A stretch of 64,000 nt of DNA from an uncultured Acholeplasmataceae bacterium (lineage in GTDB: Bacteria; Bacillota_I; Bacilli_A; Acholeplasmatales; UBA5453). Shown piece after piece: positions 36,924 through 62,951 of this stretch (positions are counted from its first letter, which is position 1; each line of letters begins with the position of its first letter). The notes beneath the pieces are model-generated. The model was given only the letters and a program-made list of their open reading frames with translations, was not told where the DNA came from and did no database searches. Location of the stretch: contig CAZYSQ010000001.1 of NCBI GenBank assembly GCA_964649865.1, positions 13,849 to 77,848 on the forward strand. The letters are read 5' to 3'. Both the position numbers and the translations under genes were made by a program.

Positions 36924-37959
36924 CGGTTCTCCTTGAGGGGTTCGCGGCCATACGTGCCGCGTAGTTGATGTTCTCCAGTTCGCGTCTGCTCTGCGCCGGC
37001 ACATCAATGCCGTCGTCCAGCAGCTCTGCGGACTGGGTTCGGATTCGGTCCGCGAGGTCAGGGTCCTGCATCAGAAGCGCGGGTCGGCGCTGAATGAGCG
37101 CGGACACCGCGTGCGCAGACAGGCTCATGTACGGAACCCTCGATGCGAGCCCGTCAGCAAGATGCCTCAGCAACACCGCGCCACGCCAAGGCCCGAGGTC
37201 GCTGGCCATGAACGTGTCGTTGGTCGCCGCCCCGTTCGTCTCCTCCACCCAGTACGACCAGTAGTTCAGGTTCGCCGCCTCGCACAGGTCGTCAGTGAGG
37301 TGATCCCGGATGAAGTCATTCAGCAAAGTCGGGTCGCCCTGGCAGGCACGTGCAACGGCAGTGGACCTCAAGAGCGACCAGCCCGGAGTCCACGCATCGT
37401 GGCGGCGAGCACGTCCGACCTCCGCCTTCTCCATGGCGGCGAGCCAGTTGCGGCCGTCGCGGGATGGATCCCAGGCGGTCATGTAGTACACCTGCCGGCG
37501 CAGGAGCATCGCCCGAGGGTCATCCGCTCGGGCTTGCTCGGCTGCAGCGCGGAGCACACGAAAGAACTCCAGCCGGGCCGCCATGGGCAGCGGCGACCGC
37601 GGCACCTGGGCCAGGCTCGCGCTGAGCACTAGCGGCGGTTTGTCAGCGAGAACCCACGCGAGCAGGTCGCTCCACGTGCGGGTTGCGACCCACTCTCCCA
37701 GCGGAGACGCGTCGCCGTCATCGAGAACCTGGGCAATGAACAGGTCCGCGTCCATCGCGGTGTTGAGGTGCTCGACCAGGGCGGGCGATGCGCCGAGCCC
37801 TAGGAGCCGGTGCCTCATGATGCGGAGGTTCCTGGCTGAGGTGTTGAGGAGTGGGCGACGTCCCGTCTCCCAGCCTTTAAGAGTGTTCGGGTCCACGGTG
37901 AGGAGCTCGGCGAGCTGCTCCTGGGTGAACCCGACCGATTCCCGGATCGTCCGCAGCAT
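36916..37959 (-). CDS. XRE-family HTH protein with a ~280-aa uncharacterised helical C-terminal domain
   Basis: MLRTIRESVGFTQEQLAELLTVDPNTLKGWETG. ATG 37959 is preferred over 38031 because the first 24 codons of the long ORF have low GC3. Confidence 0.7.
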   Translation of the reverse strand: MLRTIRESVGFTQEQLAELLTVDPNTLKGWETGRRPLLNTSARNLRIMRHRLLGLGASPALVEHLNTAMDADLFIAQVLDDGDASPLGEWVATRTWSDLLAWVLADKPPLVLSASLAQVPRSPLPMAARLEFFRVLRAAAEQARADDPRAMLLRRQVYYMTAWDPSRDGRNWLAAMEKAEVGRARRHDAWTPGWSLLRSTAVARACQGDPTLLNDFIRDHLTDDLCEAANLNYWSYWVEETNGAATNDTFMASDLGPWRGAVLLRHLADGLASRVPYMSLSAHAVSALIQRRPALLMQDPDLADRIRTQSAELLDDGIDVPAQSRRELENINYAARMAANPSRRTDV

Positions 37960-38144
37960 GATGCCGGCGACGATGCCGCCGGATGGCCGGGGTGTACTCC
38001 CGGTACCTGTGCGTCCTGCAGGTCTGCTCATCGCTGGGACCTGAGCCTCCCGAACGTGTACTGCCAGTGTCTCTAGATGCGCTGTGCGTCTAGCTAGCGT
38101 GTGTGCAATGAGTCCAGGTGAGCGCAGTCAGATGATCCAGGAGA

Positions 38145-38543
38145 TCAGCGGTCTCTCTGATCGGCTTGATCGACTGACGGCGCAGCTTGCGGAGCTGAGA
38201 GCTCTCGCCGCAGCGCGTCGAGCTGCATCTCAAAATCATCCATCCGCTGACGCAACTCCTCTAGAAGCTTCGCCTGATCATGAATGTCCGGAAGCGGCTC
38301 CCGCTTCGCTGGCTTCATAAGGACGAAGGTTCCCCGAGTTGAGCGGGTCTCCAGTACCCCCTTCGACTTCAACTCGTCCAGCGCCTTCTTGAGGGTCTCA
38401 GGCGCGACGCCATAGTCCGCTGCCATCTGCTTTCGCGCTGGCAGTTGCTCTCCGGGCTCATACCGACCCTGCTCGATCTGCTCCCACAGGTCATCGGCGA
38501 TCTGCAGGTAGACGGGGTGCGGGCTACTGAAATCAATGGGCAC
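38145..38543 (-). CDS. GntR-family repressor with a short C-terminal coiled coil (KorSA-like)
   Basis: PVYLQIADDLWEQIEQGRYEPGEQLPARKQMAADYGVAPETLKKALDELKSKGVLETRSTRGTFV. Confidence 0.8.
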   Translation of the reverse strand: MPIDFSSPHPVYLQIADDLWEQIEQGRYEPGEQLPARKQMAADYGVAPETLKKALDELKSKGVLETRSTRGTFVLMKPAKREPLPDIHDQAKLLEELRQRMDDFEMQLDALRRELSAPQAAPSVDQADQRDR

Positions 38544-38562
38544 TCTCCAAGGCTAGGCCGAT

Positions 38563-38608
38563 CTAGCTCAACTAGGAAGCAAGGTCTTGCTAGCTCAGAC
38601 TAGACTAG
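38563..38608. promoter_or_regulatory. CTAG-rich operator-like repeats between the GntR gene and the xis-like operon
   Basis: CTAGCTCAACTAG (38563-38575) and CTAGCTCAGACTAG (38590-38603), plus ACTAG. A further CTAGCTAG lies at 38090-38097. Confidence 0.5.
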
Positions 38609-38653
38609 TTCAACGTGTACAGCTATGGTGAAGAGGTCGAAGGAGGAACAGCC

Positions 38654-38932
38654 TTGAGCGAGCAGATCAGTCCCGCGAGCGGGACGCAGACGGCGGATCC
38701 CCGCCTCCTGCTGCCCGTGTCGGAGGTGGCCGCCCTGCTCGGGCTGTCCACGATGACCGTCTACCGCCGCATCCGGTCCGGGCAGTGGCCCAGCGGCAGG
38801 AGCGGACGCAAGCACCTCATCCCCCGCAACTTCGTCGAGGGCCTCCTCAGCGAGATGCGGACGGGTGAGCAGGTCAACATCGAGGCGTACGGCGCTGCCG
38901 CATGGCCGGCGAAGGCTGAGGAGCTCGCGTGA
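38654..38932 (+). CDS. excisionase-family (MerR-like) HTH DNA-binding protein
   Basis: LLLPVSEVAALLGLSTMTVYRRIRSGQWP. TTG 38654 lies 7 nt after a GAAGGAGG SD. Confidence 0.7.
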   Translation: MSEQISPASGTQTADPRLLLPVSEVAALLGLSTMTVYRRIRSGQWPSGRSGRKHLIPRNFVEGLLSEMRTGEQVNIEAYGAAAWPAKAEELA

Positions 38933-39069
38933 ACGCCGAGCAAACGCCCAAGCAGGCCGCCGCCCCGCGCCCCGCCGTCGAGGACCGGGTCGAGCGGATC
39001 GCCACCTACTGGGGCCGCGCCGTCGTGGACGCGTGGCGCACCGTCTTCCCTCGCCGGGAGGACACCTGA
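38929..39069 (+). CDS. small protein (46 aa), not in ORF track
   Basis: GTG 38929 forms GTGA. High GC3. Confidence 0.35.
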   Translation: MNAEQTPKQAAAPRPAVEDRVERIATYWGRAVVDAWRTVFPRREDT

Positions 39070-39219
39070 TGAGCACCTCCGCCGCCCCGGGCCCCGCAGT
39101 GACCGCTGCAGGGGCGGCGGAGGCCCGCACCCCGAACAGCACAAAGCCCCGCCCGGTGCAGCAACACCGGAACGGGGCCGATCGGAACCGCTCAACCCTC
39201 CAAGGAAGGAACCGCTCCT

Positions 39220-39327
39220 ATGTCGAACCGTACCAGCCGCGGCGGCGAGGCCACCGCACCCACGTCCAGCATGTGGGGCAAGAAGGGCAAGGGCCTGCCG
39301 GAGCTCGGCAAGGGCGGGAAGAAGTGA
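39220..39327 (+). CDS. Lys/Gly-rich micro-protein (35 aa), not in ORF track
   Basis: ATG after a CAAGGAAGGA SD. MSNRTSRGGEATAPTSSMWGKKGKGLPELGKGGKK. Its GC3 is much higher than that of the overlapping long ORF frame. Confidence 0.35.
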   Translation: MSNRTSRGGEATAPTSSMWGKKGKGLPELGKGGKK

Positions 39328-39578
39328 CCGCCCCCGACCTCACGCCGGTGGACCTCGCGCAGGTCGAGCGGGACATCGCCGCCGTCCTCGTCGCCCACGG
39401 CCTCACCACCCACGACACCGTCCAGGTCGCCGCCTACGAGATCGAGCAGGCCGGCCAGACCGCCGGTGTCACCGTCACCGCGTACGCCTACACCCCGCCC
39501 GCCGGCGTCCCCGCCCCTCGACCCGCCGACGACAGCCCGCTCACGGCGCTCGCCGAGCAGCTGGAGGCCGTGTCGTGA
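39324..39578 (+). CDS. hypothetical protein
   Basis: GTG 39324 forms GTGA. VTAPDLTPVDLAQVERDIAAVLVAHG... Confidence 0.45.
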   Translation: MTAPDLTPVDLAQVERDIAAVLVAHGLTTHDTVQVAAYEIEQAGQTAGVTVTAYAYTPPAGVPAPRPADDSPLTALAEQLEAVS

Positions 39579-39667
39579 ACGGCTACGTCAAGGCCCGGCT
39601 CGTGATCGCGTCGGTGTTCATCGCGCTCGCCGCCCTGATCATCCTGGCGGGAGGGATCACCTCGTGA
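39575..39667 (+). CDS. 30-aa single-TM peptide, not in ORF track
   Basis: VNGYVKARLVIASVFIALAALIILAGGITS. GTGA coupling at both ends. Confidence 0.35.
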   Translation: MNGYVKARLVIASVFIALAALIILAGGITS

Positions 39668-39813
39668 ACGCCACCCGCACCCGCACCGCCCGGGCGACCG
39701 CGCGTTGCCCCCGCCACCCCGACACCGTCCTCGACGAGGGCCCGGTCCAGTACCGGTGCCCCCGCGGGCACCGCGTCCAAGCCGCGGACCTGAACCGGGA
39801 GGTGACCCGGTGA
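39664..39813 (+). CDS. 49-aa zinc-ribbon-like protein
   Basis: CPRHPD...CPRGH. GTGA coupling. Confidence 0.4.
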   Translation: MNATRTRTARATARCPRHPDTVLDEGPVQYRCPRGHRVQAADLNREVTR

Positions 39814-40106
39814 AGCTCATCGCGAGCATGATCGTGGACACCGCCGCAACCCGCCTGCAGAAGACGATCGCCCGGCTGCGTGTCCGCAAGCCGCAGCCGT
39901 GGCAGTGCAACCACCGGTGGGAGCCCTGCCCCGTCGTCACGCTCGGCGTCCCCGGACGGTACTGCACCCGCTGCACCGCCCTGGAAACCCGCTGCGCCGG
40001 GCAGCCGCTCGGACACCCCGAGTCCATGGCGATCCTCCTTCCGCAAGTGATGGAGAACGCCCTTGCCGCGATCGACGCCGAGACCTGGCCCGAGGAGGTC
40101 GCCTGA
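39810..40106 (+). CDS. hypothetical Cys-containing protein
   Basis: GTG 39810 forms GTGA. Confidence 0.45.
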   Translation: MKLIASMIVDTAATRLQKTIARLRVRKPQPWQCNHRWEPCPVVTLGVPGRYCTRCTALETRCAGQPLGHPESMAILLPQVMENALAAIDAETWPEEVA

Positions 40107-40108
40107 CC

Positions 40109-40363
40109 ATGTACCACCTCAACGCCGGCAACAGCCCCACCGACCGTGAGATCGCCGTCGGCGGGCGCCCCTTCACCAACCTCGGCCCCGTCTACGACGG
40201 ACACCACGCCAAGCCCGCCGACTGGTACCTGTTCCTCCACGCCGGCTGCTGGCGCATCGCCCAAGTCTGCGAGGTCCGTGACCACGGCCACGAGGTCCGG
40301 TTCATCGGAGACGGCCAGTGGCGCCGTGTCGCCGGGATGACCGCGCTGCGGGAGCCGACGTGA
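40109..40363 (+). CDS. hypothetical protein
   Basis: ATG 40109 (MYHLNAGNSPTD...). Confidence 0.5.
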   Translation: MYHLNAGNSPTDREIAVGGRPFTNLGPVYDGHHAKPADWYLFLHAGCWRIAQVCEVRDHGHEVRFIGDGQWRRVAGMTALREPT

Positions 40364-40468
40364 CACAGCAGCAGCCGCAAAAGCCCAGGCCGCCCCGCCG
40401 GCCTGACCCGACCATCGACCGCCGGACACCGTCCGGCCGTCCCCTCCCCTACTGAGGAGTAACCCGCC

Positions 40469-40795
40469 ATGCCCGCGCTCCACCGCCGCAGCCTCCACAT
40501 CCAGCTGCCCTGGGACGACCCCGTCCCGCCCGGCCTGGCCCTGGAGATCCCCGCCTGGACCGAAAAAGCACGGTGCACCGAGGTCGGCGGCGACGAATTC
40601 TACCCCGAGAAGGGCCAGTCCAGCGTCCCCGCCAAGCAGGTGTGCATGGGCTGCGAGGTCCGCATGCAGTGCCTGGAGTGGGCGCTCGACAACGGTGAGC
40701 GCTTCGGCGTGTGGGGTGGGAAGTCCGAGCGGGAGCGCCGCAAGATCGCCCGCGACCGCCGCACCGCCGCAACCGTCACGGAGGTGTCGGCATGA
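40469..40795 (+). CDS. WhiB-family transcription factor (second copy in the window)
   Basis: CTEVGGDEFYPE...CMGCEVRMQCLEWAL...GVWGG. Confidence 0.85.
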   Translation: MPALHRRSLHIQLPWDDPVPPGLALEIPAWTEKARCTEVGGDEFYPEKGQSSVPAKQVCMGCEVRMQCLEWALDNGERFGVWGGKSERERRKIARDRRTAATVTEVSA

Positions 40796-42051
40796 AGCTC
40801 ATCTGGAAGCACACCCGGCCGCCGGTGGTCGAGTCCGTTCAGGACCAGACCGCCCAGGCCGCGGACCTTGCCCGGATCCCCGGGCAGGACATGCTCACCG
40901 ACCCGCGCACCAACCCTGCGGTCCGGGCCCTGCTCGACCACCTCCGTAACGAGCAGCACCGCATGCAGCTCGAAGCCGAACACGGGAGGGCCAAGCGCCG
41001 GCACCGTGTCGACGACCGTCACCGTGCCGAGGCCGAGCTGACCCTGCACGCCATCCTGCAAGCGAAGCAGGCGTCCTCTCCGGCCCGCTCTGTCCTCGCC
41101 CTGCACCGCGGACGCACCTGGTTCATGGGTGCTTCTCTGGCCGCGTCGGTGTCCCTGTCCGTCGGGTCCGCGTTCGGTGTGGGGCATCTCGCCGACGAGC
41201 TCGGCGCCCCCAAGGTCACCGGGTGGGTGGCTGAGGTCGGCATGGTCGGCCTGTCCACCATCACGATCCTCTACCTGGCACACCTGTTCCGCCACGGATG
41301 GGTGCCTTCCGTCCTGCACCGGCTGCTGCTGGGGTTCCTGGCGATCGGGCCGCTGCTCGGTTCGGTGGTCGCGAACTCGTTCGGTGCCGGCCCTGTCGGT
41401 GTCGCCTGCTCGGTGGGCGCAGCGTTGTTCGGGGTGTTCAGCCACCTCGTGAGTGACAACTCGGCTGGTGCGCTGCGGAAGAAGGCGGACGAGGTCGGGA
41501 TGGAGGACGCGCAGGCGCTCCGCGCCACGGCGCTGGGCGACGACCTGTTCGCTCTGCCTGCCGAACCGCGAACCACTGAAGAGGTTCCAGAACCGGAGTT
41601 CGCGAACCAGCAGGTTCAGGTTCACGCGGAGGTTCAGGAACCACCCGCTGTGGAGGTTCACGAACCGGCCGTCTCCGAGGTTCGCGAACCGCAGCAGGTT
41701 CCGAACCACGCTCCCGAACCCGCGAACCCCGAACCGGGCGAGAACCGCGAACCGGTGAACCCCGAACCGCAGGTTCACGAACCCGCCCCGGCCGAACCCG
41801 CGAACTCCGAGGTTCCAAACCACGAGCCCACCACGCAGCACAAGTCCCGCACCAAGCCGGCCACGAGCCTCAACGACCGCGCCCAGCGGAAGGCCGCCGA
41901 GGTTCAGCAAGTCGTGGACCTGATCCGTGAGCGGGGCGAGGACGCCGTGACGCTGAACGTGGTTCGCGAGGAACTCGAGTTCGCGAAGACGACCGCGTAT
42001 CACCGCCTTGTCGCTGCCCGCGAACTCGTGAACCAGGCGGTGGCGTCGTGA
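40792..42051 (+). CDS. polytopic membrane protein (DUF2637-like) with a repeat-encoded Pro/Glu linker and C-terminal HTH-like domain
   Basis: ATG 40792 forms ATGA. Four hydrophobic segments. Linker EVPEPEFANQQVQVHAEVQEPPAVEVHEP... is encoded by the GAACC repeat field. Confidence 0.6.
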   Translation: MKLIWKHTRPPVVESVQDQTAQAADLARIPGQDMLTDPRTNPAVRALLDHLRNEQHRMQLEAEHGRAKRRHRVDDRHRAEAELTLHAILQAKQASSPARSVLALHRGRTWFMGASLAASVSLSVGSAFGVGHLADELGAPKVTGWVAEVGMVGLSTITILYLAHLFRHGWVPSVLHRLLLGFLAIGPLLGSVVANSFGAGPVGVACSVGAALFGVFSHLVSDNSAGALRKKADEVGMEDAQALRATALGDDLFALPAEPRTTEEVPEPEFANQQVQVHAEVQEPPAVEVHEPAVSEVREPQQVPNHAPEPANPEPGENREPVNPEPQVHEPAPAEPANSEVPNHEPTTQHKSRTKPATSLNDRAQRKAAEVQQVVDLIRERGEDAVTLNVVREELEFAKTTAYHRLVAARELVNQAVAS

Positions 42052-42250
42052 ACCTGAAGCACGCGAACCCCGAACCGCGAACCTCTGAGTCTGGAACCTG
42101 CGCTGCCGCGAACCTCGGCCAGCAGTGCCCCGAGCCGGCCACGCTTCTTGAACCTGTCGCGCTCTGCGACGAGCACAAGGTTCAGGTTGCCCTACTGGTT
42201 GCGCCCGAGGTGCTGTCTGCTGTCCTTGCTGAGGTTCGCGTGAACCAGCA
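41563..42250. repeat. dense GAACC/GGTTC repeat field (candidate clt / TraB recognition array)
   Basis: About 37 GAACC or GGTTC pentamers by manual count in ~690 bp. Eight exact CGCGAACC octamers. Palindromes GGTTCGCGAACC and GGTTCACGAACC. Spans the junction of two genes. Confidence 0.8.
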
Positions 42251-42818
42251 TGGCCCCGGCCATCCCTCCCCCTCCGTCGAAGTCCAGTTGATCAACGCCG
42301 CACAGGCGGTCAAGACACCGGCCGATGAGCGGCATGAGCCGCTCGTGTACTTCATGGCCAACGGCGGCCGGGTGAAGATCGGCCACACGAAGAGCCTGGC
42401 CGCGCGCCTGCGGGCGCTCTCTCTTCCTGGCGATGCGGTCCTCCTGCTTCTGCAGGGCGGGCTCCCCCTCGAACGCGCTTTGCACCTGAAGTTCCGCTCT
42501 TTCCGGATCGGCAAGAGCGAGTGGTTCGAGCTCGCGCCCGAGATTGTGCACTTCATCGCAAGCAAGAGCACCACACTGAACCGCCCTCTGACCAGCACGA
42601 ACAGGCTCGGCGGCCGGTTCGGTGTGGCGCGGAGGCCGCGCCGCACACGCGATCAGATCCGGGTCCAGCTCGAGGCGGCGCTTCGGGACCGTGCCCCTGG
42701 GACGACTCTGCGCGTGAAGCCGCTGGCGGAGCAGATCGGAGTGAATCGGCGCATCGTTCGCGAGCTTCTCGACGAGATGGGCGTTCGCCCAGCTGAGGGG
42801 CGCAGCGATGGCAGGTAA
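42048..42818 (+). CDS. T5orf172 (MUG113, GIY-YIG-superfamily) domain protein with C-terminal HTH
   Basis: LVYFMANGGRVKIGHTKSLAARLRAL ... ERALHLKFRSFRIGKSEWFEL. C-terminal AEQIGVNRRIVRELL. Confidence 0.68.
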   Translation: MNLKHANPEPRTSESGTCAAANLGQQCPEPATLLEPVALCDEHKVQVALLVAPEVLSAVLAEVRVNQHGPGHPSPSVEVQLINAAQAVKTPADERHEPLVYFMANGGRVKIGHTKSLAARLRALSLPGDAVLLLLQGGLPLERALHLKFRSFRIGKSEWFELAPEIVHFIASKSTTLNRPLTSTNRLGGRFGVARRPRRTRDQIRVQLEAALRDRAPGTTLRVKPLAEQIGVNRRIVRELLDEMGVRPAEGRSDGR

Positions 42819-43053
42819 GCGTCGTGGCACGGGCCGGCCGTATCAGCGGCGCTCGCGCCCAGAACGGCGACGGTCCGCCCTCAACGTCGAGCTTGCCGCT
42901 GCCCACGACTCAAGAGCCCGGGTCGCACTCGCTGCGGACTATCTGCGCAGCGCACTCGCGATCCATCCCGATCCGGCCACCGCTGAGGAAGCCGTGAATC
43001 TGCTGATTCAGGCGGCCGACCGCCTGTATGCGAGGAAGGAGGCACAGACGTGA
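42808..43053 (+). CDS. hypothetical basic protein
   Basis: ORF track. Confidence 0.45.
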   Translation: MAGKRRGTGRPYQRRSRPERRRSALNVELAAAHDSRARVALAADYLRSALAIHPDPATAEEAVNLLIQAADRLYARKEAQT

Positions 43054-43553
43054 CCGCGACCGAGAGTGACATCCAGTCCGCCAAGCAGGCGGGGGGAGAG
43101 GGAACTGTGCACTGTGCAGTGCACAGTCCGGGAGAAACCCCGGATGCGGGACCCAACGCGCGCCCGCGCGGGCGCCCGCGCGAGAGTAGCGGTGAGAGTG
43201 CACAGTCGCAACCCGACAGTGCACCCCCGCCGGAGGCCGACGACCCCACCCCGCCGGTCACGTGGAGTGACCGTCTCGCGGACACCGCGCGCGGGTTCTC
43301 CCCGCCGGACATCTGGTCGACGGACCGGCCGTCCCTGTCCCTCATGTGGGGGTACGCGGCCCGCGGCGACTGGACGACCGAAGCCGGGCTGCCGCGCCGT
43401 GCCGGGCAGGTATACGCGGTCTTGGTCGCGGTCCCGGTCACGGCCGTCACCTACCTCCTGGCGTGGGCCGCTGAACGGCCGTCCCGCCTGGCCGCAGCGA
43501 TCGTGCTGCTTGTCCTGCTGTTCCGGGTCCCGCCGCTGGCGTGGCTCACCTAA
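43050..43553 (+). CDS. membrane protein (Spd-like)
   Basis: GTGA coupling. C-terminal TM pair VYAVLVAVPVTAVTYLLAW / AAAIVLLVLLF. Confidence 0.55.
   Translation: MTATESDIQSAKQAGGEGTVHCAVHSPGETPDAGPNARPRGRPRESSGESAQSQPDSAPPPEADDPTPPVTWSDRLADTARGFSPPDIWSTDRPSLSLMWGYAARGDWTTEAGLPRRAGQVYAVLVAVPVTAVTYLLAWAAERPSRLAAAIVLLVLLFRVPPLAWLT
43104..43224. repeat. 24-bp perfect palindrome plus dispersed GTGCACAGT / GTGCACTGT 9-mers
   Basis: ACTGTGCACTG-tg-CAGTGCACAGT at 43104-43127. AGTGCACAGT at 43197-43206. ACAGTGCAC at 43216-43224. Confidence 0.7.
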
Positions 43554-43572
43554 CACCGAAAGGAGACTCGTC

Positions 43573-44016
43573 ATGGGATGGGTCGTTCTTCTGCCCACCG
43601 CCGCCGTGTGGTTCGTGGTGTCCAAGCGGGTACGGCTCCGCCGTGGCGCCGCGGCGGTGTCCGTCGCGGTGATGCTGCTCGCCGCGATCGCCGGCTGCGG
43701 GTTCGCGTACACGTTCGCCGGGCGCTGGTTCGCCGGGCTGGTCGCTTGGATCGGCCGGATCCTCGCGAACATCACCGGTGAGGCTGGGATCGCGTCCGGG
43801 ATCGCTGTCTCGCTCACCCTGCTGCTGCTGCTGACCGCGGTCGCCGACATCGCCTGTGACCGCCGCGCGGACCGTGCCGCGCAGGTGTCGGCTTTCCTGA
43901 TGCCGGTGGCGCTGGCGCTGGTCATCGGCGGGTCGCTGGGAGCCAGTGGCGGCACCGCCGTCGAGTCGGTCACCAGCCAGGTGTCGGCGTTCATGTCCCA
44001 GATCGGGGGTGCGTGA
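43573..44016 (+). CDS. polytopic membrane protein (Spd-like)
   Basis: ATG 43573 follows an AAAGGAG SD. Four hydrophobic segments. Confidence 0.6.
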   Translation: MGWVVLLPTAAVWFVVSKRVRLRRGAAAVSVAVMLLAAIAGCGFAYTFAGRWFAGLVAWIGRILANITGEAGIASGIAVSLTLLLLLTAVADIACDRRADRAAQVSAFLMPVALALVIGGSLGASGGTAVESVTSQVSAFMSQIGGA

Positions 44017-45236
44017 TGGATCCGCTGTCGGCGATGCTGCTGGCGCTGTGGGTCGCCGGGTACTTCACCCGCAACACGGTGCAGGACCTGGTGTGGAAGG
44101 CGCGGGGGGAGGACCCGCCGTCGGTGCGGCGGGAGCAGGCCCGCCGTGAGCGCCGCGCCGAGCGGGCCGCGGACCCGGGGCCGGGCCGCCGGTTCTGGGG
44201 GCATGTGTGGGCTGACGCGGTCGCGTCGGCGGAGGAGCACCGCGAGCGTGTCGCTGCGCGGAAGGCCCAGAAGCGCCGGGCCCGGTGGTCGGAGCAGGAC
44301 GCTGCCGCGGCGGAGGACGAGGCGTACGAGACCAACGAGCGGTTCGTCCCCGCCGAGGAACCCACCGCCACCATCGAGCCGGCGAAGCGCGACGAAGGCG
44401 TCTGCGACACCTGCAACAGGGCGTGCAAGCAGTCCGTGCTGGTGACCCGGCGCGTGGACGGCTACGGGCGGCTGTGGGTCTGCCCATCCTGTGCTGAGGA
44501 CCTCAAGGCGGGCCGGACGGTGCCGCTCATCGCCGAGCGGGACCAGGCCGATCCTGTCGTCCACGACGAGGTCGTCTGGTACTGCCGGGGATGCGGCACC
44601 CGCATGTGCAACGCCGGCATGGACTCCTACGAGCGCGGCGAGGAACTGTGCCGCGCCTGCCGCGCCATCGAGGACAATGCGGCGGCGCCGCGTCGCTGCC
44701 GCTTCTGCCACCGCACCTTCCCCACCGTGGAGTTGTGGCCCACGCGCACCACGGACGGGCAGACGGTCGGGGCCTGCCCGGACTGCTGGCACGACCAGAA
44801 CACCCACCGCCCCGCACCGGCCACCGTCGACGACGCAGAGCAGCCGGAACCACCCACCACCGCCGACCCCGAACCGGGGGACGCGGAGATCATCCAGTTC
44901 GCCGACTGGCAGCGCCCCGCCACCGGCAGCACCGAGAAGGAGAACAACATGTCCGCTGAGATCACCGGCCTGCAGTCCGCGATCGCCTACGCGACAGGAT
45001 CCGCCGCCGCCGCGGAACGCGCCGCGGGCCAGGACGAGATGGCCATCGCCAACCTCCAGGCCGGCGGTACCACCGGTGCCGCGATCGCGAGCCTGCAGGC
45101 GTCGATGGAGGGCCACACCCAGAACGCCGCCCACTACCGCGCCGCAGCGGCAACGCTGACGCAGCAGCTGCAGGTCAAGGAGGCGTACGAGGCGAACCAG
45201 GGTGCTGGCGAGAAGAAGTTCGTCACCTCCGAGTAG
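44013..45236 (+). CDS. membrane-anchored protein with several CxxC zinc-ribbon units and a C-terminal helical domain
   Basis: N-terminal TM, then CDTCNR..CPSC, CRGCG..CRAC, CRFCH..CPDC. Confidence 0.55.
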   Translation: MMDPLSAMLLALWVAGYFTRNTVQDLVWKARGEDPPSVRREQARRERRAERAADPGPGRRFWGHVWADAVASAEEHRERVAARKAQKRRARWSEQDAAAAEDEAYETNERFVPAEEPTATIEPAKRDEGVCDTCNRACKQSVLVTRRVDGYGRLWVCPSCAEDLKAGRTVPLIAERDQADPVVHDEVVWYCRGCGTRMCNAGMDSYERGEELCRACRAIEDNAAAPRRCRFCHRTFPTVELWPTRTTDGQTVGACPDCWHDQNTHRPAPATVDDAEQPEPPTTADPEPGDAEIIQFADWQRPATGSTEKENNMSAEITGLQSAIAYATGSAAAAERAAGQDEMAIANLQAGGTTGAAIASLQASMEGHTQNAAHYRAAAATLTQQLQVKEAYEANQGAGEKKFVTSE

Positions 45237-45336
45237 CGAATAGGACGCGCTGGCGTTGCGTCCTGGCACCCCGCGCCTGGCGGGGTGTCTCACGGAGCGC
45301 CAGCCCCCTCCCAGCCAGTAGCGAAGGAACAGGGAC

Positions 45337-47388
45337 ATGGACACCACCACGATGGAGCCGCCCGCCACGGTCGGCGCACCCGAGCCCGACCGGTTCACTG
45401 CCGTCCCGGCGCAGCCCGATGCGTCTGCGTCGTCCGGGCGGTGGAACGCGGAGGGCATGGTCGGCCGGGCCCGCACCGACGCCTACGACACTGCGGTGCG
45501 GCTCCGTGCGCAGATCGCGCCGCACGCCGCCGCAGGGGCTGTCTTGGCGGTCGGGTTGGGGATGGACTCTGTCGTCGCCGCAGGTGGCATGTCCGCGCCC
45601 GCTATGGCGTTGACGGCTGCGGCGGTGTCCGCTCCGACCGTCACGGGGCTGGTGTTGCGTGCCCGCGCCCGCGGCTCGGAATGGGTCCGCCGTCTCCTGA
45701 TCGGTGGCGTCGCCGCAGCGGGCTGGCTCGTGGCCGCACCGTTCGGTGTTGAGCCGGTCAGTGTCGCCGCACTCGTCGCTGCCGAGTACGCGGTTGCCGC
45801 GCGGTGGTGGCAGACCCACCGGCCCGGCTACCCCGGCGACGATGTGCCCGAACTGGCCACCGAGGACGCGCTCCCGGAGGAGGAGCCCGTCCCCGAGCCC
45901 CTCACACCGGTCGAGCAGATCGTCGCGGACTGGGACGAGTACATCGCCTGTTCCGGCGGCCCGCTGCAGAACTCCCGGCTGATCGCCCCTCAGCAGCACA
46001 AGCACGGGTTCGCGTTCACGCTGCAGCTGTGGCGGGGCCGGCACACCCTCACCAGTGCGATCGCCGCGCTCGACAAGCTCGCGTCCGGGTTGGACTGCGG
46101 CGTTGATCAGATCATCGTGGAGTCTCACCCGCTGCTGAAGGGGGAGGCGAACTGCCGGTTCCAGCTCATCACCAACTCCCCGATCGCCGGGGACGTGGTG
46201 TTCGATGGGCCCCGCCGCCGCGGCGGACTACTGGAGCTCGGTCCGTATGCGGACGGGTCCGGCGAGGCGCCGTACCGGTTGTACACGCCCGGGTCGATGT
46301 GGTCCGGCGTCATCATCGGCGGCACCGGCATCGGCAAGTCCCGCGTCGTGGAGAACATCATCATCTCCGCGCTGTCCGGCGGCGACACCGAGTTCTGGTA
46401 CCTCGACCCGGCCCGCGGCGGGTCCAGTCCCGCCCTCGCCGAGGCCGCGGACTGGTTCGTCACGATGGACCAAGTCGACGTGTTCCTCGACACGGTCATC
46501 GCGGTCCTGGAGGCCCGCACCGATGAGAACGCCGTCGAGGGGTGGACGGGGTTCACCCCATCGCCCGAGCGGCCGGGACTGCTGATCGGGGTGGAGGAGT
46601 GCCACAACCCGTTCCAGGGGGCTGAACGCGCCGAGAAGTGGGCGAAGATCGCCCGCGAGGGACGCAAGGTCGGGATCTCCCTGCTGTGTGTCTCCCAGTA
46701 CCCCGGTCTGATCACCTTCGGCGGGAACGAGGCGCTGCGGTCCAGCGTGATGGAGGGCAACGCGCTGGTCCTCCGCTCCACCAGCAACCAGACCGGTGGG
46801 CTGATGGCCGGGTTGACTGTCGACCCCAAGAGCCTCCCGAAGATCCCCGGCTACGCCTACGTGCAGGGGTCGGAGGAGACCGGGACGCGCACGGCCCCGT
46901 TCAGGAACCGCAACACCGCGCCCCCGAACGGTCCAGGCGCCGGCCGATGGCTCGCGTCCCAGCCCCGTCCCGGACTCGACGTGCTCGCCGTGACCGCGAC
47001 TCTCGCCGCCGGCCCCGCCTACCAGGACCGGCGCACCTCAACCGACACCGGCCGTGCCGGTTCCCGCGCACGCGTCGAGTCGCTCCGCAATGGGCACCTG
47101 CCCGCCGACATGCTCAAGGGCCGGAAGAACACCGCCGAGGTCCCCACCATCGCCCAGGTGATCGAGTTCCCCCAGTTCCGCCTCATCGAGACAACCACGC
47201 CCGCGTCTGGCCTCAGCGCCTCGCACCAGGCCGTGCTCGACGCGGTCGCCGCCGGCGTCACCCGCCCCGCCGACATCGAGACGGCGGTCGGGTTGAAGCA
47301 CCGCCGTGTCGCCGCGATCCTCGCCGACCTTGTCACCTCCGGGCACCTCACCAAGACCGGCCACGGCCGCTACCAGACCGCGGCCTAA
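45337..47388 (+). CDS. traB: FtsK/SpoIIIE-family DNA translocase, Streptomyces TraB/TraSA-like
   Basis: N-terminal TM region, Walker A GGTGIGKS, Walker B LLIGVEE, and a C-terminal wHTH (VTRPADIETAVGLKHRRVAAILADLVTSGHLTK). Confidence 0.85.
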   Translation: MDTTTMEPPATVGAPEPDRFTAVPAQPDASASSGRWNAEGMVGRARTDAYDTAVRLRAQIAPHAAAGAVLAVGLGMDSVVAAGGMSAPAMALTAAAVSAPTVTGLVLRARARGSEWVRRLLIGGVAAAGWLVAAPFGVEPVSVAALVAAEYAVAARWWQTHRPGYPGDDVPELATEDALPEEEPVPEPLTPVEQIVADWDEYIACSGGPLQNSRLIAPQQHKHGFAFTLQLWRGRHTLTSAIAALDKLASGLDCGVDQIIVESHPLLKGEANCRFQLITNSPIAGDVVFDGPRRRGGLLELGPYADGSGEAPYRLYTPGSMWSGVIIGGTGIGKSRVVENIIISALSGGDTEFWYLDPARGGSSPALAEAADWFVTMDQVDVFLDTVIAVLEARTDENAVEGWTGFTPSPERPGLLIGVEECHNPFQGAERAEKWAKIAREGRKVGISLLCVSQYPGLITFGGNEALRSSVMEGNALVLRSTSNQTGGLMAGLTVDPKSLPKIPGYAYVQGSEETGTRTAPFRNRNTAPPNGPGAGRWLASQPRPGLDVLAVTATLAAGPAYQDRRTSTDTGRAGSRARVESLRNGHLPADMLKGRKNTAEVPTIAQVIEFPQFRLIETTTPASGLSASHQAVLDAVAAGVTRPADIETAVGLKHRRVAAILADLVTSGHLTKTGHGRYQTAA

Positions 47389-47419
47389 CTCCCACACCGC
47401 AACAGGAAGGAACCGACCC

Positions 47420-47671
47420 ATGCGCGCCAACACCTGGGACGACGTGGAGCGTCTCATCCTCACCGCGACCCGCGAGCCCGCCACCGCCCGGCAAGTCACC
47501 GACTCCACTGGCCTCACCGACCGGATCGCCCAGGCGCAGCTCGATGTGTTCCAGCGCCAAGGGCTCCTCATCCAGACCGTGGACGTCGGTGTCCGCTACG
47601 AGCTCACTCTCGCCGGGCGGCAGCGTCTGGCGTCCCTCGACCCCCAGCCCGGCCACCAGGCAGCGGCCTGA
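47420..47671 (+). CDS. winged-helix (MarR-like) small protein
   Basis: ATG 47420. ATARQVTDSTGLTDRIAQAQLDVFQRQGLL. Confidence 0.5.
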   Translation: MRANTWDDVERLILTATREPATARQVTDSTGLTDRIAQAQLDVFQRQGLLIQTVDVGVRYELTLAGRQRLASLDPQPGHQAAA

Positions 47672-47745
47672 CTGGTCTGGTGCTGCGTCCTGGCGGCCAC
47701 TACCCCCGTGGTGGCCGCCTCACGGAACACCAGAACGGAGACACC

Positions 47746-47982
47746 ATGCCTGATAAGAACCGCATCGTCACCCCGTACACCGACCCCAACCGGTTCACCC
47801 CCGAAGAGAAGGCTGCGTTCGACGCCGGCGAATGCTGCTGGGACTGCGGCGACTCCCATTGGGGGCAGCGCGACACCAAGTGCCACGAGCCGAGCGCCCC
47901 CGACGCGCCGATGGGGTACTGCGTCGGCCACGTCGAGACGCTGCTAGAGGACCACTGGCCGGACGGGAGCCCCCGCCGATGA
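47746..47982 (+). CDS. hypothetical Cys-containing protein
   Basis: ATG 47746 (MPDKNRIVTPY...). Confidence 0.45.
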   Translation: MPDKNRIVTPYTDPNRFTPEEKAAFDAGECCWDCGDSHWGQRDTKCHEPSAPDAPMGYCVGHVETLLEDHWPDGSPRR

Positions 47983-48092
47983 GCACCACATGCTCCAGAT
48001 GTGGTGCACCGAAAAGCATCACCCGGGTCTTGGACCCGCTGACCGGCAAGACCGTCAAGAAGGTCACTCAGCCGTGCCGGAGGTGCACGTGA
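47979..48092 (+). CDS. 37-aa zinc-ribbon peptide, not called at this start in the track
   Basis: MSTTCSRCGAPK...CRRCT. ATGA and GTGA coupling. Confidence 0.35.
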   Translation: MSTTCSRCGAPKSITRVLDPLTGKTVKKVTQPCRRCT

Positions 48093-48274
48093 GCCACGTC
48101 AACTTTGACGTAGACGGAAACGGACGCTCAGCGCTCATCACCATCACCGCCTCAGAACGCGGGCAGACCGTCCGGATCCACGCACGCATGGACCAGGACT
48201 CCCTTCGCCGCCTCATCCGGAAGCTGTGCGACCGGGCCGGGCTGCCTGAACCGTGGAAGGAGGAGACACGATGA
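48089..48274 (+). CDS. hypothetical small protein
   Basis: GTG 48089 forms GTGA. Confidence 0.45.
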   Translation: MSHVNFDVDGNGRSALITITASERGQTVRIHARMDQDSLRRLIRKLCDRAGLPEPWKEETR

Positions 48275-48711
48275 GTCTCGCAACGATGGGTGGCGTGTAC
48301 GCCGCTCTCCACGCCGGCCACACCGTGGGCGACTACTGGGGTCAGAGCGACTACCAGGCGCAGGTGAAGGGGAAGCCCGGCACCGACGGGCAGGCCGCGT
48401 GCGCGCGGCACGTCGCGGTCCTCACAGCCACACAGGCAGCGTTCCTCGGTCTCGCCTGCCTCGCCACAGGGGAACGACTCAACGCCCGCCGTGTCGCCGC
48501 TGGGCTGGCCGTGAACGCTCTCTCCCACTACGCCATCGACCGCCGCGACCACGGCGTCATGCCCGTGTTGTGCCGAGCCCTGTGCCGCTACGGCAAGGAA
48601 GACTTCGCCGCGGCTGGCGACGGTCTCGCGACCGGGGCCGCGCTACTCGACCAGGCGTGGCACATCGGATGGTGCGCCATCACCGCAGCCGTCATCGCTG
48701 GAAAGGACTAG
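48271..48711 (+). CDS. membrane protein, DUF3307-like
   Basis: HAGHTVGDYWGQSDYQA resembles the HxxGD(F/Y)xxQ signature of DUF3307. ATGA coupling. Confidence 0.45.
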   Translation: MSLATMGGVYAALHAGHTVGDYWGQSDYQAQVKGKPGTDGQAACARHVAVLTATQAAFLGLACLATGERLNARRVAAGLAVNALSHYAIDRRDHGVMPVLCRALCRYGKEDFAAAGDGLATGAALLDQAWHIGWCAITAAVIAGKD

Positions 48712-48715
48712 CCAG

Positions 48716-48868
48716 ATGAGCAACCCGCCCCCGATCGTGAACGCCAACGTCACCTGCCGCAAATGCGGCCGCAATCAGACCCGCACCTTCCGGGCGAAGC
48801 GCGGAGACACCGTCGTTCTGCGGTGTGAGAGCTGCAACGTTCGGATGACCCTCGTCCTTGAGGGGTAG
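48716..48868 (+). CDS. 50-aa zinc-ribbon protein, not in ORF track
   Basis: CRKCGRN...CESCN. Confidence 0.35.
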   Translation: MSNPPPIVNANVTCRKCGRNQTRTFRAKRGDTVVLRCESCNVRMTLVLEG

Positions 48869-48952
48869 CTACGGGCCCCAGGTCACGTAGGGATTGGGAA
48901 ATCGCGGCAGCGCTAAACATGCGGATGACCTGCGGAAATGAGAGAATAGAGC

Positions 48953-49153
48953 ATGGCTGAGGAAAGCGAATCGGTGAGCATCGATGACCTGTCCGGGGGC
49001 GGTCCTGCCGAACTGTTCCGGCACATCGATGAGGAGTACCGGGCTGCATCGGAGGCGATGGCCCGAGGGGACATGGCGGCGTGGGTAGAGCACGCCGGGC
49101 GCGGTGCGGAACTGTACGAGGAGGCCGCACGGCTGAATGGCTGGCGGGACTGA
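48953..49153 (+). CDS. hypothetical acidic small protein
   Basis: ORF track, after a low-GC spacer. Confidence 0.45.
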   Translation: MAEESESVSIDDLSGGGPAELFRHIDEEYRAASEAMARGDMAAWVEHAGRGAELYEEAARLNGWRD

Positions 49154-49155
49154 AC

Positions 49156-49488
49156 ATGACTGACGACCTCACCCACGCCCGCGAATTCCGGGCCAACAGA
49201 GACGTCCTCGCTACCGTCGATTGCCCGGTCGTGATCGGTGGGCCATTCCCGCCAGCGCCGACGGTGCGGTTCTGCGACCTCGGAGGAGAACGCCTCCCCA
49301 GCGACGCCCACTGGTGGCTGGTTCAGGCCCCAGATCGAAGTTGGGAAGCGGACCGTGGGGCGTCATGTGCTGCCCACTGCGGTGAGGCCCCCGTACCGGC
49401 ACCACTGCGCCGCCCCCGTGACGGTTACAGCCAGGCCGTTGAGTGGATCGAGGACGGACGCCCGTTCGAGGGCACCCGGACAACCTGA
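49156..49488 (+). CDS. hypothetical protein
   Basis: ATG 49156 (MTDDLTHAREFR...). Confidence 0.5.
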   Translation: MTDDLTHAREFRANRDVLATVDCPVVIGGPFPPAPTVRFCDLGGERLPSDAHWWLVQAPDRSWEADRGASCAAHCGEAPVPAPLRRPRDGYSQAVEWIEDGRPFEGTRTT

Positions 49489-49550
49489 GTCATGGGCTCA
49501 CAGAATGCCGATTCCGGGAAGTTGACGACTGAAACGGAGATCACCGGACC

Positions 49551-50570
49551 GTGACCGAACTCGTCCCCCACAGTGCCGCGCCCGCCGGCGGCCCGCTGCT
49601 CGCGCTCACATCTCCTCCACACGGTGCCGCTGACCCGTACCTGGTGTACCGGAACTCCCTCGACAGCGCCGAGTCCAAGACGACCATGACCGCATGCCTC
49701 GACCGCATCGCCCGCATGATCCTCGAAGAGGAGATCGGCGAACCACTCCCCCGTGACCAGACGGTCACCGGCGCAGGCCGGTCCTGGTGGCTCCTCAGAT
49801 ATGAGCACACCTCACGTATCCGCGACCTCCTACTGCAGACAGGCTGGTCCCCCAGCCACGTCAACAAGCACCTGTCCGCGCTCCGACGCGTACTCAAGGA
49901 ATGCCAGTACCTCGGCCTGATGAGCGCCGACCAGTACGAATCCGCCGCACGGATCAAGAACGTGAACGCCAAACGAGAGAAGGCCGGCCGGAACCTCAAC
50001 GCGGACGAGCTCGCGTCGATGCTGCGCGTCTGCGAGAACGTCGAAGGGCCCGCTGGCGTGCGGGATGCCGCACTGATCGGTGTGCTGTGGTGCACGGGCG
50101 CGCGACGGGAAGAGGTCGCGAACATCGTCCTGGAGCGCTACGACGCTGGCACCCGCGCTCTGAAGCTCACTGGCAAGGGCAACAAAGAACGCGCGGTCTA
50201 CATCCACCCGCGGGTACTCCCCCACCTGGAAGCCTGGCTGTCCTTGCTCGGCACCCGTCGGGGGCCGATGTTCCAGCCGGTCGACCGGTGGGGGCATGTG
50301 CGGACGGGAGGGATGTCCAAGCGTGCGGTCGGGATGGTCGTTGCGCGGGTCCGTGCCCGCGCCGGCCTCCCGCCCCTGTCCACGCACGACTTTCGACACA
50401 CCTTCATCGGTGACCTCCTCGACAAGGGCGTCGACCTAGCCACGGTGCAGGCCCTCGTGGGGCACGCGTCCCCCGTCACCACTGCGGCGTACGACCGGCG
50501 TCCTGAGCGCGTCAAGCAGGACGCCGTGGACAGCCTCGACTACCCCGGCAACGACAGGAGTGAGACATGA
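49551..50570 (+). CDS. int: tyrosine recombinase / integrase
   Basis: GARREEV (Arg I), HDFRHTF (HxxR), GHASPVTTAAYDRR (catalytic Tyr), and an N-terminal SAM-like domain. Confidence 0.88.
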   Translation: MTELVPHSAAPAGGPLLALTSPPHGAADPYLVYRNSLDSAESKTTMTACLDRIARMILEEEIGEPLPRDQTVTGAGRSWWLLRYEHTSRIRDLLLQTGWSPSHVNKHLSALRRVLKECQYLGLMSADQYESAARIKNVNAKREKAGRNLNADELASMLRVCENVEGPAGVRDAALIGVLWCTGARREEVANIVLERYDAGTRALKLTGKGNKERAVYIHPRVLPHLEAWLSLLGTRRGPMFQPVDRWGHVRTGGMSKRAVGMVVARVRARAGLPPLSTHDFRHTFIGDLLDKGVDLATVQALVGHASPVTTAAYDRRPERVKQDAVDSLDYPGNDRSET

Positions 50571-50818
50571 CGAAGTGGACAATCGACATGGACGGGCGCT
50601 ATGTGGCGACGTCGGACACCGACACCTCTGGGATGAGGGACCCTGTCCAATGCGCCCACTGCCCCGGTGTCTACGACCTCGCCACCGTCAACGTCACGGC
50701 CCGGTACACGGACTGCTCTATGTGGCGGTCGCCGTGCTGCGGGCTGCTGGTGGATGACCGCGGCGAGACGGGGTGGAAGTCGCGTGGCGACTACGTGCGT
50801 CTCCGCCCGACCAGGTGA
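50567..50818 (+). CDS. hypothetical Cys-rich protein
   Basis: ATGA coupling to int. Confidence 0.5.
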   Translation: MTKWTIDMDGRYVATSDTDTSGMRDPVQCAHCPGVYDLATVNVTARYTDCSMWRSPCCGLLVDDRGETGWKSRGDYVRLRPTR

Positions 50819-51018
50819 AGGCTCCGCCTGCTGACGCCCGGTGGATCTGGGTGTCTCTCCCGCGGGCGACGTTCGCTTTGATCGTGCATGAGGGGCGTGT
50901 GGTGGACGCGGCACCGTACGGGCGCCGGTACCTCGGGTGGGATGAGCGGCGGGCGGCGGATGCGTTGCGGCGGGCCGGGGCCGAGTGTCGTCCACTCCCC
51001 CAGCCTTCGGATGTCTAG
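50815..51018 (+). CDS. hypothetical small protein
   Basis: GTG 50815 forms GTGA. Confidence 0.4.
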   Translation: MKAPPADARWIWVSLPRATFALIVHEGRVVDAAPYGRRYLGWDERRAADALRRAGAECRPLPQPSDV

Positions 51019-51182
51019 GGTTCTCTAGAATCTGCTACACGGTCGTGACGCGCGGCCCGGCGGGTTATCGGGATGCGTACAGTTCCCGGACGGGTTACGG
51101 TCTCGGTAGCACCTCTCCCGAAGTGCTGGGATCGACGGCTACTTCTTGCGGAAAGATCAACGCCGTCGCCCGATCCGTTATC

Positions 51183-51368
51183 GGGAGGGTCGACAACTTC
51201 AGATGGGGTGCCCGAAGTGCAGGCTGGTCCTACTTCCACTGTTAATGGAGAGGTTGCAGGTTCGAGTCCTGTCATCGGTCTTCGACCGGTGTAGCTCAAC
51301 GGCAGAGCACTACGTTGGATCCGCCGACATCGTTGTCGGGCACCTCCTCTGAAGTCGAACCCCCTCCC
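51183..51368 (+). ncRNA. yrlA: YrlA-type bacterial Y RNA: long terminal stem plus a circularly permuted tRNA-like module
   Basis: Terminal stem GGGAGGG/CCCTCCC (51183-89 / 51362-68), TCGAC/GTCGA, CTTCAGA/TCTGAAG, GGTGCCCGA/TCGGGCACC (51207-15 / 51336-44). T-arm GCAGG-TTCGAGT-CCTGT (51256-72). Acceptor-like stem CATCGGTC-ttc-GACCGGTG (51273-91). D-arm GCTC-AACGGCA-GAGC (51294-308). Ends 23 nt before rsr. Confidence 0.72.
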
Positions 51369-60174: not shown

Positions 60175-60207
60175 GTCAACGGCTCCCCTCTTCGCCACGA
60201 GTGGGCA

Positions 60208-60471
60208 TTAGCCGCACCTCAGTTCGCTGCGCAGCTCGTGGATCTGCTGCTGGATCCGCGCACCCCGCTCCGTTGTCGGCGGCGCCTGTGGCTGATCCAG
60301 CGAACTGAGCAGGTCACACCAGCGCTGATCAGACTCCCGCTGCACATGCCTCGTGTACGCGGTCGACGCGACCAGCGCCGCGACGAACAGCAACCCCACC
60401 GCGATCACCATCGCCACCGCGTACATCCGCCGCGCCGAGTACCTCACGGCACCATCACCCGGAGGTACCAT
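60208..60471 (-). CDS. single-TM protein (holin/spanin-like)
   Basis: MYAVAMVIAVGLLFVAALVAS. Confidence 0.5.
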   Translation of the reverse strand: MVPPGDGAVRYSARRMYAVAMVIAVGLLFVAALVASTAYTRHVQRESDQRWCDLLSSLDQPQAPPTTERGARIQQQIHELRSELRCG

Positions 60472-61590: not shown

Positions 61591-61593
61591 AGG

Positions 61594-62940: not shown

Positions 62941-62951
62941 CGGCTACCCCC

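Follow-up and report, generated by a model that had tools for sequence, protein, structure and literature searches.

Phages and conjugative elements are usually regarded as separate gene-transfer vehicles, and surveys of phage-plasmids focus on replication and partition genes, not on transfer genes. Among the papers searched, the actinomycete plasmid-phage with reported conjugal transfer is pZL12/phiZL12 (GQ919031, 90.4 kb). Its transfer requires tra and two adjacent genes (PMC3583192), and it was described as a singleton without close relatives (PMC7157519). Elements similar to it are PhiNon1 and pSLE1, the latter with two integrase genes (PMC4487206). The locus reported here is a block of genes (g77 to g99, 38.1-50.8 kb) within a 64-kb stretch of contig CAZYSQ010000001.1; this whole stretch of 64,000 nucleotides is referred to as the window. 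The block is probably a TraB-type conjugation module, conserved and resident in an element of about 97 kb that is temperate and siphovirus-like and whose host is of Actinomadura type (Streptosporangiales), and not an inserted actinomycete integrative and conjugative element (AICE). Its slot in the accessory arm has the lysis cassette on one side and the serine integrase on the other, and transcription runs towards the lysis genes. With such a module in its genome, the element may have two ways to spread, in virus particles and through mating between cells.

Comparison with described elements

Like pZL12, the element corresponds to a temperate tailed phage genome of about 90-100 kb from a mycelial actinomycete. 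In both, an FtsK/SpoIIIE-like tra gene has genes for membrane proteins as neighbours, and a GntR regulator is present (pZL12.71c-73c, pZL12.80). Structural genes of tailed phages and lysis genes occur as well, those in the window encoding a holin, an endolysin and a minor tail protein. There is, however, nearly no sequence similarity: only the GntR and WhiB proteins, g94 and g106 match, whereas TraB and the phage arms do not, and pZL12 was rejected as a sequence relative. pZL12 has ParAB and lives as a plasmid, while the window has a serine integrase with a Gp3-like recombination directionality factor (RDF) and no ParAB was seen in it. The tra gene of pZL12 lies near an unannotated cluster similar to mycobacteriophage genes (pZL12.66c-68c), unlike the position between lysis cassette and integrase found here, and the host group is another one. 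Because of the near lack of shared sequence, the serine integrase with RDF and the ParAB genes not seen here, the best reading is that the element is a hybrid of the pZL12 kind without being its relative in sequence. A preliminary description of this DNA had offered a phage/conjugative-plasmid hybrid like the Streptomyces plasmid-phages as one of two explanations, and for the architecture this is supported, the TraB identity coming from NCBIfam and the FtsK/TcpA fold. It called the block Streptomyces-type; the relatives are Actinomadura, Thermomonospora and other Streptosporangiales, not Streptomyces.

AICEs are defined as single units, bounded by att sites, that hold Int, Rep and Tra; most often they lie in a tRNA gene (PMC2440964, te Poele 2008; PMC3218068, Ghinet 2011). 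With the AICEs pSAM2, SLP1 and pMEA300 the block shares a single TraB-type double-stranded DNA (dsDNA) translocase, a GntR-family repressor, an excisionase-family helix-turn-helix (HTH) protein, small membrane proteins in Spd position and a tyrosine recombinase nearby. It differs from them in that no Rep gene, att repeats or tRNA target were found in the searches given below, that the recombinase is short, Xer-like and not beside the Xis-like gene, and that a phage genome of about 100 kb surrounds it, at a position that is conserved. The transfer systems of pSVH1, pIJ101 and pJV1 comprise a membrane-anchored, FtsK-like hexameric pump with a C-terminal winged helix, short direct-repeat clusters and a repressor gene beside the operon (PMC4447253, PMC3583192); traR and traB form a kil-kor pair, and Streptomyces TraB binds plasmid-specific 8-bp repeats in clt, the cis-acting transfer locus (PMC4447253). 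The pump is predicted here as well, and repeats and a candidate repressor gene are present, but the TraB-like protein lies far below the NCBIfam TraB cut-off, and the candidate array lies 3 kb upstream of traB, within another gene and in both orientations.

The predicted transfer module

Since the G+C content of the window is about 68-70%, genes were called from third-position G+C, giving 117 genes (g01-g117). Families were searched in Pfam (E 0.01), NCBIfam (ten proteins of the block), PHROG and Rfam. All window proteins were compared with TraB-family loci, 30 from species genomes and 16 from IMG/VR, which are cited by L numbers where they have to be told apart.

The block has a single P-loop motor, as had been described: g90 (45337-47388, forward strand), a 683-aa TraB-like dsDNA translocase with N-terminal membrane helices, an FtsK-type ATPase with the Walker A sequence GGTGIGKS, and a C-terminal winged helix. 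Residues 227-680 aligned to positions 149-631 of the 639 positions of the NCBIfam model plasmid_TraB (NF041214) with an E value of 3.7e-15. The AlphaFold model, made with 21 homologs (predicted local distance difference test, pLDDT, 77), has membrane helices at residues 39-161, an ATPase core and a winged helix at 628-683. Its best PDB matches in Foldseek were the coupling protein TcpA of pCW3 and FtsK motor domains (E 9e-14 to 1e-11). G333-K334-S335 and E421 are invariant in 21 of 21 homologs. The predicted architecture is accordingly that of a TraB-like translocase, with a membrane anchor, an FtsK-type motor with Walker A and B, and a C-terminal winged helix; by the FtsK/TcpA fold and the NCBIfam TraB match, g90 also corresponds to the FtsK/SpoIIIE-domain Tra protein of AICEs. 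Tblastn of g90 found 77 actinomycete plasmids (PLSDB records) and none of the phages in INPHARED, and megablast of the block against both collections gave no match. Plasmids pKutB-C4 and pPmurDSM45305 also carry TraB-family modules of this type, and a linear plasmid of Amycolatopsis shows the same order of GntR, WhiB, membrane protein and TraB-like gene, and no phage genes were seen in the surrounding 20 kb. None of the core genes g87-g90 belongs to a PHROG family. The transfer module is of plasmid type, not of phage type. As judged from the NCBIfam alignment, the predicted fold with its PDB matches and the plasmid homologs, the TraB reading of g90 holds for architecture and homology; by its sequence the protein is a distant homolog of the plasmid TraB equivalog NF041214, not a member of it.

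Upstream, the short GntR-family protein g77 (38145-38543, reverse strand; 132 aa, winged-helix domain only, Pfam GntR 4.3e-17) is divergent from an operon that starts with g78 (38654-38932, forward strand), an excisionase-family HTH protein (HTH_17 1.5e-06) that scores 37.4 bits with TIGR01764 and exceeds the cut-off of 28.8; a GntR repressor divergent from an Xis-like HTH operon had been named before and is confirmed. GntR homologs occupy the position of g77 in A. rubrisoli (L007), L035 and L054 and on the Amycolatopsis linear plasmid, and homologs of g78 in L005 and L007 are 41-51% identical. From its family and place, g77 is a candidate Kor/TraR-type repressor of the divergent transfer operon. 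The spacers on either side of it (38061-38653) are rich in CTAG, with 9 of the 38 CTAG sites of the window, and would likely be the operator and promoter region.

The operon continues on the forward strand with the small open reading frames (ORFs) g79-g83 (38929-40363), which are partly conserved in relatives; g82 is missing from metagenome relatives, which have a deletion at 39810-40106 (read joint from 39814 to 40103). Read joints were also considered as excision junctions and rejected, being short chance joins of 21-30 bases or small indels. Next is the WhiB-family protein g84 (40469-40795; Pfam Whib 2.2e-20), correctly noted in the preliminary description; a WhiB gene upstream of the TraB-family gene is conserved across many loci. 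The window has two WhiB-family genes, g84 and g20 of the early arm (10037-10357), which cross-match each other in tblastn of related loci.

Membrane proteins resembling Spd had also been claimed for the operon, and hydrophobic segments were found in g85, g87 and g88, while the likeness of g85 to Spd is by position only. This 419-aa protein (40792-42051, forward strand) has two hydrophobic segments and a Pro/Glu-rich repeat linker, no match in Pfam, NCBIfam or PHROG, and homologs of 44-51% identity in L005, L007, L035 and L036. It is followed by g86 (42048-42818, forward strand), with a T5orf172/MUG113 (GIY-YIG-like) domain and a C-terminal HTH (MUG113 1e-06, T5orf172 2.4e-05, phrog_8604 5.6e-10), and by the small membrane proteins g87 and g88 (43050-44016, forward strand), which accompany TraB-family genes in most of the loci L005-L049. 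Directly 5' of g90 lies its conserved partner g89 (44013-45236, forward strand; 407 aa), with several CxxC pairs and without family matches in Pfam, NCBIfam or PHROG. Small genes (g91-g96, 47420-49153, forward strand) follow 3' of g90; among them g94 is a DUF3307-like membrane protein (phrog_2470, 3.1e-16), and g91, g92 and g94 are kept in L005, L007 and L035. NUDIX genes, present in relatives, are absent from this block.

Candidate transfer site

K-mer clustering showed a dense array of CG(C/T)GAACC with inverse GGTTC copies at 41561-42114, which covers the 3' portion of g85 and the beginning of g86. These 554 bp hold 18 of the 47 SCGAACC sites of the window, plus many inverse GGTTC copies. 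The same motif cluster is found at the same relative place in A. rubrisoli (L007), two uncultivated viral genomes (L035, L036) and the Thermomonospora umbrina chromosome (L053), and the five elements with the array share the TraB C-terminal helix GLKHR. Clades with other TraB tails have different clustered motifs at this place: CCGGAG, CGTCACC and GCGCGAC. The array motif appears to co-vary with the TraB C-terminal helix. As Streptomyces TraB binds plasmid-specific 8-bp clt repeats, the array is a reasonable candidate for a site resembling clt or the TraB recognition sequence (TRS); alternatively, it may consist of iterons.

Conserved position in related genomes

Homologs of g90 come from Actinomadura, Thermomonospora, Actinoallomurus and other Streptosporangiales. 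The core g87-g88-g89-g90 is widely conserved across the loci, usually with WhiB and with GntR or XRE-DUF5753 upstream. The whole layout could be traced in three relatives. The soil contig Ga0633669_0000009 (101,564 bp; L054/L055/L057) carries early genes, a Gp3-like one among them, then a serine recombinase, GntR, HTH_17, WhiB and TraB, followed by GntR, DUF397, XRE-DUF5753, HATPase_c_2, endolysin, minor tail protein (g115 homolog), Dit, tape measure and tail tube; neither a tyrosine recombinase nor a TROVE gene lies between its module and the regulators. In A. rubrisoli SMKU01000002 (104,490 bp; L007/L058) the order is tape measure, Dit, minor tail protein, holin, CHAP lysin, GntR, XRE, TROVE, tyrosine integrase and TraB module, and IMG/VR lists a viral genome of exactly the same length, 104,490 bp. 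UViG_2898571807_000002 (100,976 bp; L035+L052) matches the window from g77 through g104 and on to the lysis genes g108-g110, which are 62-83% identical in L052. The three layouts place the module in the same slot, from lysis cassette to serine integrase, while the part with integrase and TROVE differs among them.

At least four independent genomes of about 100 kb keep the TraB module at one fixed place in the phage genome, and 16 predicted viral genomes in IMG/VR carry this TraB family, which points to a stable, selected combination. Contigs with a Gp3-like gene, a TraB gene or both cluster at about 86-108 kb, which suggests complete genomes of discrete elements. The TraB of UViG_2898571807_000002 (L035) is 50% identical and its recombinase 83%; in Actinomadura sp. 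CNU-125, TraB is 71% identical, the recombinase less than 26% and the TROVE protein less than 30%. Judged from these identities, TraB and recombinase have discordant histories, and the region is a mosaic phage accessory arm with a stable transfer core and exchangeable neighbours. In two Micromonospora genomes, which are also IMG/VR proviruses (40-43 kb), a more distant TraB-family module converges on tail and lysis genes, the phage genes including a tail gene (phrog_1887, 1.8e-54), a tape-measure-like protein and a minor tail protein.

Soil metagenome contigs span 38.8-47.7 kb at up to about 500x, with the flanks not covered, and the public runs with the core module are soil metagenomes that hold related but different elements. 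Small soil metagenome runs of several studies hold the transfer core at high depth, one of them at about 500x. Soil DNA does not usually give such depth, and the source may be enrichment cultures or an element of high copy number. Just to the left of the block, the HD-domain gene g75 and the XRE-like gene g76 (36342-37959) resemble, with 54% and 37% identity, two genes that adjoin a TraB-family module of Solihabitans fulvus (L019); module neighbours have evidently been swapped between elements there too.

The tyrosine recombinase of the block is g98 (49644-50570, forward strand), a 308-aa Xer-like protein (Phage_integrase 3.8e-22; NCBIfam XerC and XerD models 1e-32 and 4e-27, both below cut-offs). 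The preliminary description had taken it for the terminal integrase of the unit. The enzyme is real, but it is not terminal, since synteny with the relatives runs over both proposed borders. Together with the small gene g99 (49644-50818, forward strand) it forms a variable part of the arrangement: g98 is 83% identical in L035, less than 26% in L005 and L007, and absent in L054. Rather than marking where a mobile unit ends, it would more probably serve in multimer resolution or as a second means of integration.

Proposed working and its weight

In a lysogen, g77 would repress the divergent operon in a kil-kor arrangement like that of TraR and TraB. With repression lifted, g90 would form a membrane-anchored hexameric pump, and its C-terminal winged helix would bind a cluster of short repeats on the element, for which the array at 41561-42114 is the candidate. 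The pump would then carry the element, as unprocessed double-stranded DNA, into an adjacent hypha. Passage and spread in the mycelium would be aided by the membrane proteins g85, g87 and g88 with the partner g89. As a result, the phage genome would gain a lysis-free horizontal route beside particle infection. A working module could let lysogens hand the prophage on to adjacent cells that have no phage receptor, TraB could also mobilise host DNA, and classifiers that decide between virus and plasmid would mislabel such elements. Put forward more tentatively, Actinomadura and soil actinomycetes related to it may harbour a lineage of temperate tailed phages, about 95-108 kb in size and not described so far, that is self-transmissible by TraB-type conjugation and travels as virions or as naked dsDNA via hyphal contacts, with an element-specific repeat array as transfer site; the Micromonospora prophages of 40-56 kb may have fused independently.

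Several observations weigh against the reading of the block as a resident conjugation module of a phage. About one third of the source contig (96,738 bp) lies outside the window, including the head and packaging genes and any plasmid replication genes, and transfer, excision and particle formation are deduced for this element from its genes and relatives. The exact element is in no indexed public run, the flanks reaching at most 0.32 and 0.12 of the sampled words. With 55.5 bits, g90 remains far below the equivalog cut-off of 800 of NF041214, and Pfam FtsK_SpoIIIE did not match it at E 0.01. The effector domain found in typical TraR/KorSA regulators is lacking in g77. The array is weak or absent in L005 and L054, whose TraB tail is likewise GLKHR, and it may be a by-product of protein repeats, since it lies inside coding DNA for a Pro/Glu-rich peptide repeat. 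A homologous module on the Thermomonospora umbrina chromosome has no phage genes seen within 10 kb; together with the Amycolatopsis plasmid it indicates that the module is not phage-specific.

Alternative explanations

The other explanation offered in the preliminary description was that a Kor/Xis/Spd/TraB/Int unit of about 13 kb is an AICE that integrated into a prophage and still excises and transfers alone. The gene set is AICE-like (GntR repressor, excisionase-family HTH, TraB-like motor, tyrosine recombinase), the size of the block suits AICEs, homologous modules occur on plasmids and chromosomes, and the soil contigs that cover 38.8-47.7 kb without flanks indicate that the core circulates in other contexts. 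The unit was thought to be delimited by an 8-bp direct repeat, TCTCTAGA. Exactly two copies exist, as described, at 38070-38077 and 51022-51029, both in CTAG-rich, AT-richer spacers, but they are a chance match of no delimiting value: the two intergenic regions share eight octamers, TCTCTAGA among them, versus 3.6 expected by chance, and 157 of 190 intergenic pairs in the window have an octamer in common. No longer direct repeats were found to bracket the block, and att-like repeats and inverted repeats near both recombinase genes did not rise above chance. The block thus differs from an AICE, which has a recombinase at one end, beside an att site, and flanking direct repeats, as a rule the 3' end of a tRNA gene. 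No tRNA gene was detected in the window, and the tRNA-like YrlA gene beyond the right end points away from the block. RepSA, RepAM, Prim-pol and ParAB were not found in g76-g103 (Pfam, E 0.01) or in the ten block proteins compared with NCBIfam, the small ORFs being scanned by family models only; that no Rep gene was recognised in the preliminary description is thereby borne out. The Xis-like gene g78 lies 11 kb from g98 and does not adjoin it, and g98 is a short Xer-like enzyme. Relatives carry the same block at the same place (L035+L052, L054/L055/L057, L007/L058), with synteny over both proposed borders, an outcome that, by the preliminary description, would refute an insertion. The similarities of TraB and of Int do not agree with each other, and a tyrosine recombinase is missing from one relative. 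An AICE inserted between two copies of TCTCTAGA is accordingly improbable.

It is likewise unlikely that a large conjugative plasmid or integrative element captured a phage or its remnant, so that the phage genes would be a passenger, perhaps a defective one. Such TraB modules are indeed common on actinomycete plasmids (the PLSDB records, pKutB-C4 and pPmurDSM45305), the independent TraB/Gp3-like contigs of about 86-108 kb are as expected of discrete replicons, and pZL12 and pSLE1 are plasmids with ParAB. Phage genes, however, lie on both sides of the block in the usual temperate order of tail, lysis, accessory, integrase, immunity and early genes. The serine integrase g47 (24314-26146, reverse strand; Resolvase and Recombinase domains) and the Gp3-like RDF g32 (15603-16691, reverse strand; 1.5e-41) form the gene pair of a phiC31-type integrating phage. 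No Rep or ParAB was found among the window proteins in family scans of these 64 kb, about 33 kb of the source contig lying outside, and the relatives are classed as viral by IMG/VR. The contrast of this plasmid backbone with a phage that bears a resident module is partly a matter of naming. There is little probability, too, that the phage uses the TraB-like ATPase and its membrane partners for purposes of its own, without transfer of the element, in segregation of a plasmid prophage, superinfection exclusion or mobilisation of host DNA. FtsK/HerA-type pumps have many roles, transfer is deduced from gene content, and g90 shows weak matches to HerA defence helicases and a terminase PHROG. These matches, however, are limited to the P-loop region (E 1e-3 to 1e-4), while the plasmid TraB model aligns over almost its whole length, and the anchor, FtsK motor and winged helix together with GntR, WhiB and small membrane proteins fit plasmid transfer loci. 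A conjugation module resident in a temperate phage genome is the preferred reading.

Other features of the window

The preliminary description was right in placing phage early genes on one side of the block and tail and lysis genes on the other, the serine integrase and the Gp3-like RDF lying to the left and the holin, endolysin and minor tail protein to the right. The early genes (1-22360, reverse strand) encode a C5 methylase, DnaB, WhiB, a polynucleotide kinase-phosphatase, a T4-type RNA ligase and the Gp3-like RDF. HTH regulators and the large serine integrase occupy 22.1-26.1 kb, small ORFs without family match 26.2-33 kb (forward strand), and a Panacea-type antitoxin pair, an HD-domain protein and an XRE regulator 33.5-38 kb. 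To the right of the block, GntR, XRE-DUF5753 and HATPase_c_2 regulators and a Phd antitoxin lie at 53.2-57.5 kb, followed by the late arm (57613-62673, reverse strand) with holin g108 (phrog_9752, 3.1e-20), g109, endolysin g111 (phrog_17214, 2.5e-38), PIG-L g114 and minor tail protein g115 (phrog_1885, 2.7e-17), assigned with PHROG.

Megablast of the left arm against phages matched solely 73 bp of the methylase, and tblastn of the tail protein against phages found a single distant Streptomyces phage. Single-protein scans of IMG/VR gave two distant contigs only for the tail protein and none for the serine integrase. As called, g115 (359 aa) is probably short at the N-terminus (region 61594-62951), its homologs having 440-470 aa and one of them being 89% identical. 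In the early arm, the polynucleotide kinase-phosphatase g21 adjoins the T4-type RNA ligase g22 (10357-12341), an RNA repair pair of the type that phages use against tRNA-cleaving defences. In the accessory arm, g70, a SocA/Panacea-domain antitoxin (Pfam 1.6e-14), overlaps its upstream partner gene g69 (33570-34488), and the two are likely a toxin-antitoxin or defence pair. The Phd/YefM antitoxin is g107 (57047-57529).

Past the right border that had been proposed for the block, yet in the same conserved arrangement, a YrlA-like Y RNA (51209-51345, forward strand; Rfam RF02553 with 35.2 bits and E 5.8e-6, under the gathering score) stands immediately 5' of g101 (51391-53016, forward strand), a TROVE/Rsr-like protein (Pfam TROVE 6.8e-12). 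The tRNA-like sequence at 51.2 kb was considered as an AICE target and rejected, being the permuted tRNA-like domain of the YrlA RNA and directed away from the block. The pairing of tyrosine integrase and TROVE recurs in Actinomadura sp. CNU-125 and A. rubrisoli (L001, L058), with proteins just 25-29% identical. A phage-borne Ro/Y-RNA system deserves attention in its own right.

Between the module and the lysis cassette, the regulator set g102 (GntR, reverse strand), g103 (XRE-DUF5753, reverse strand) and g104 (HATPase_c_2, forward strand) at 53258-55540 is present in all relatives examined, with DUF397 in some. This set of GntR, WhiJ-like XRE-DUF5753 and anti-sigma-like HATPase_c_2 kinase may couple host development or stress to lysis or transfer.

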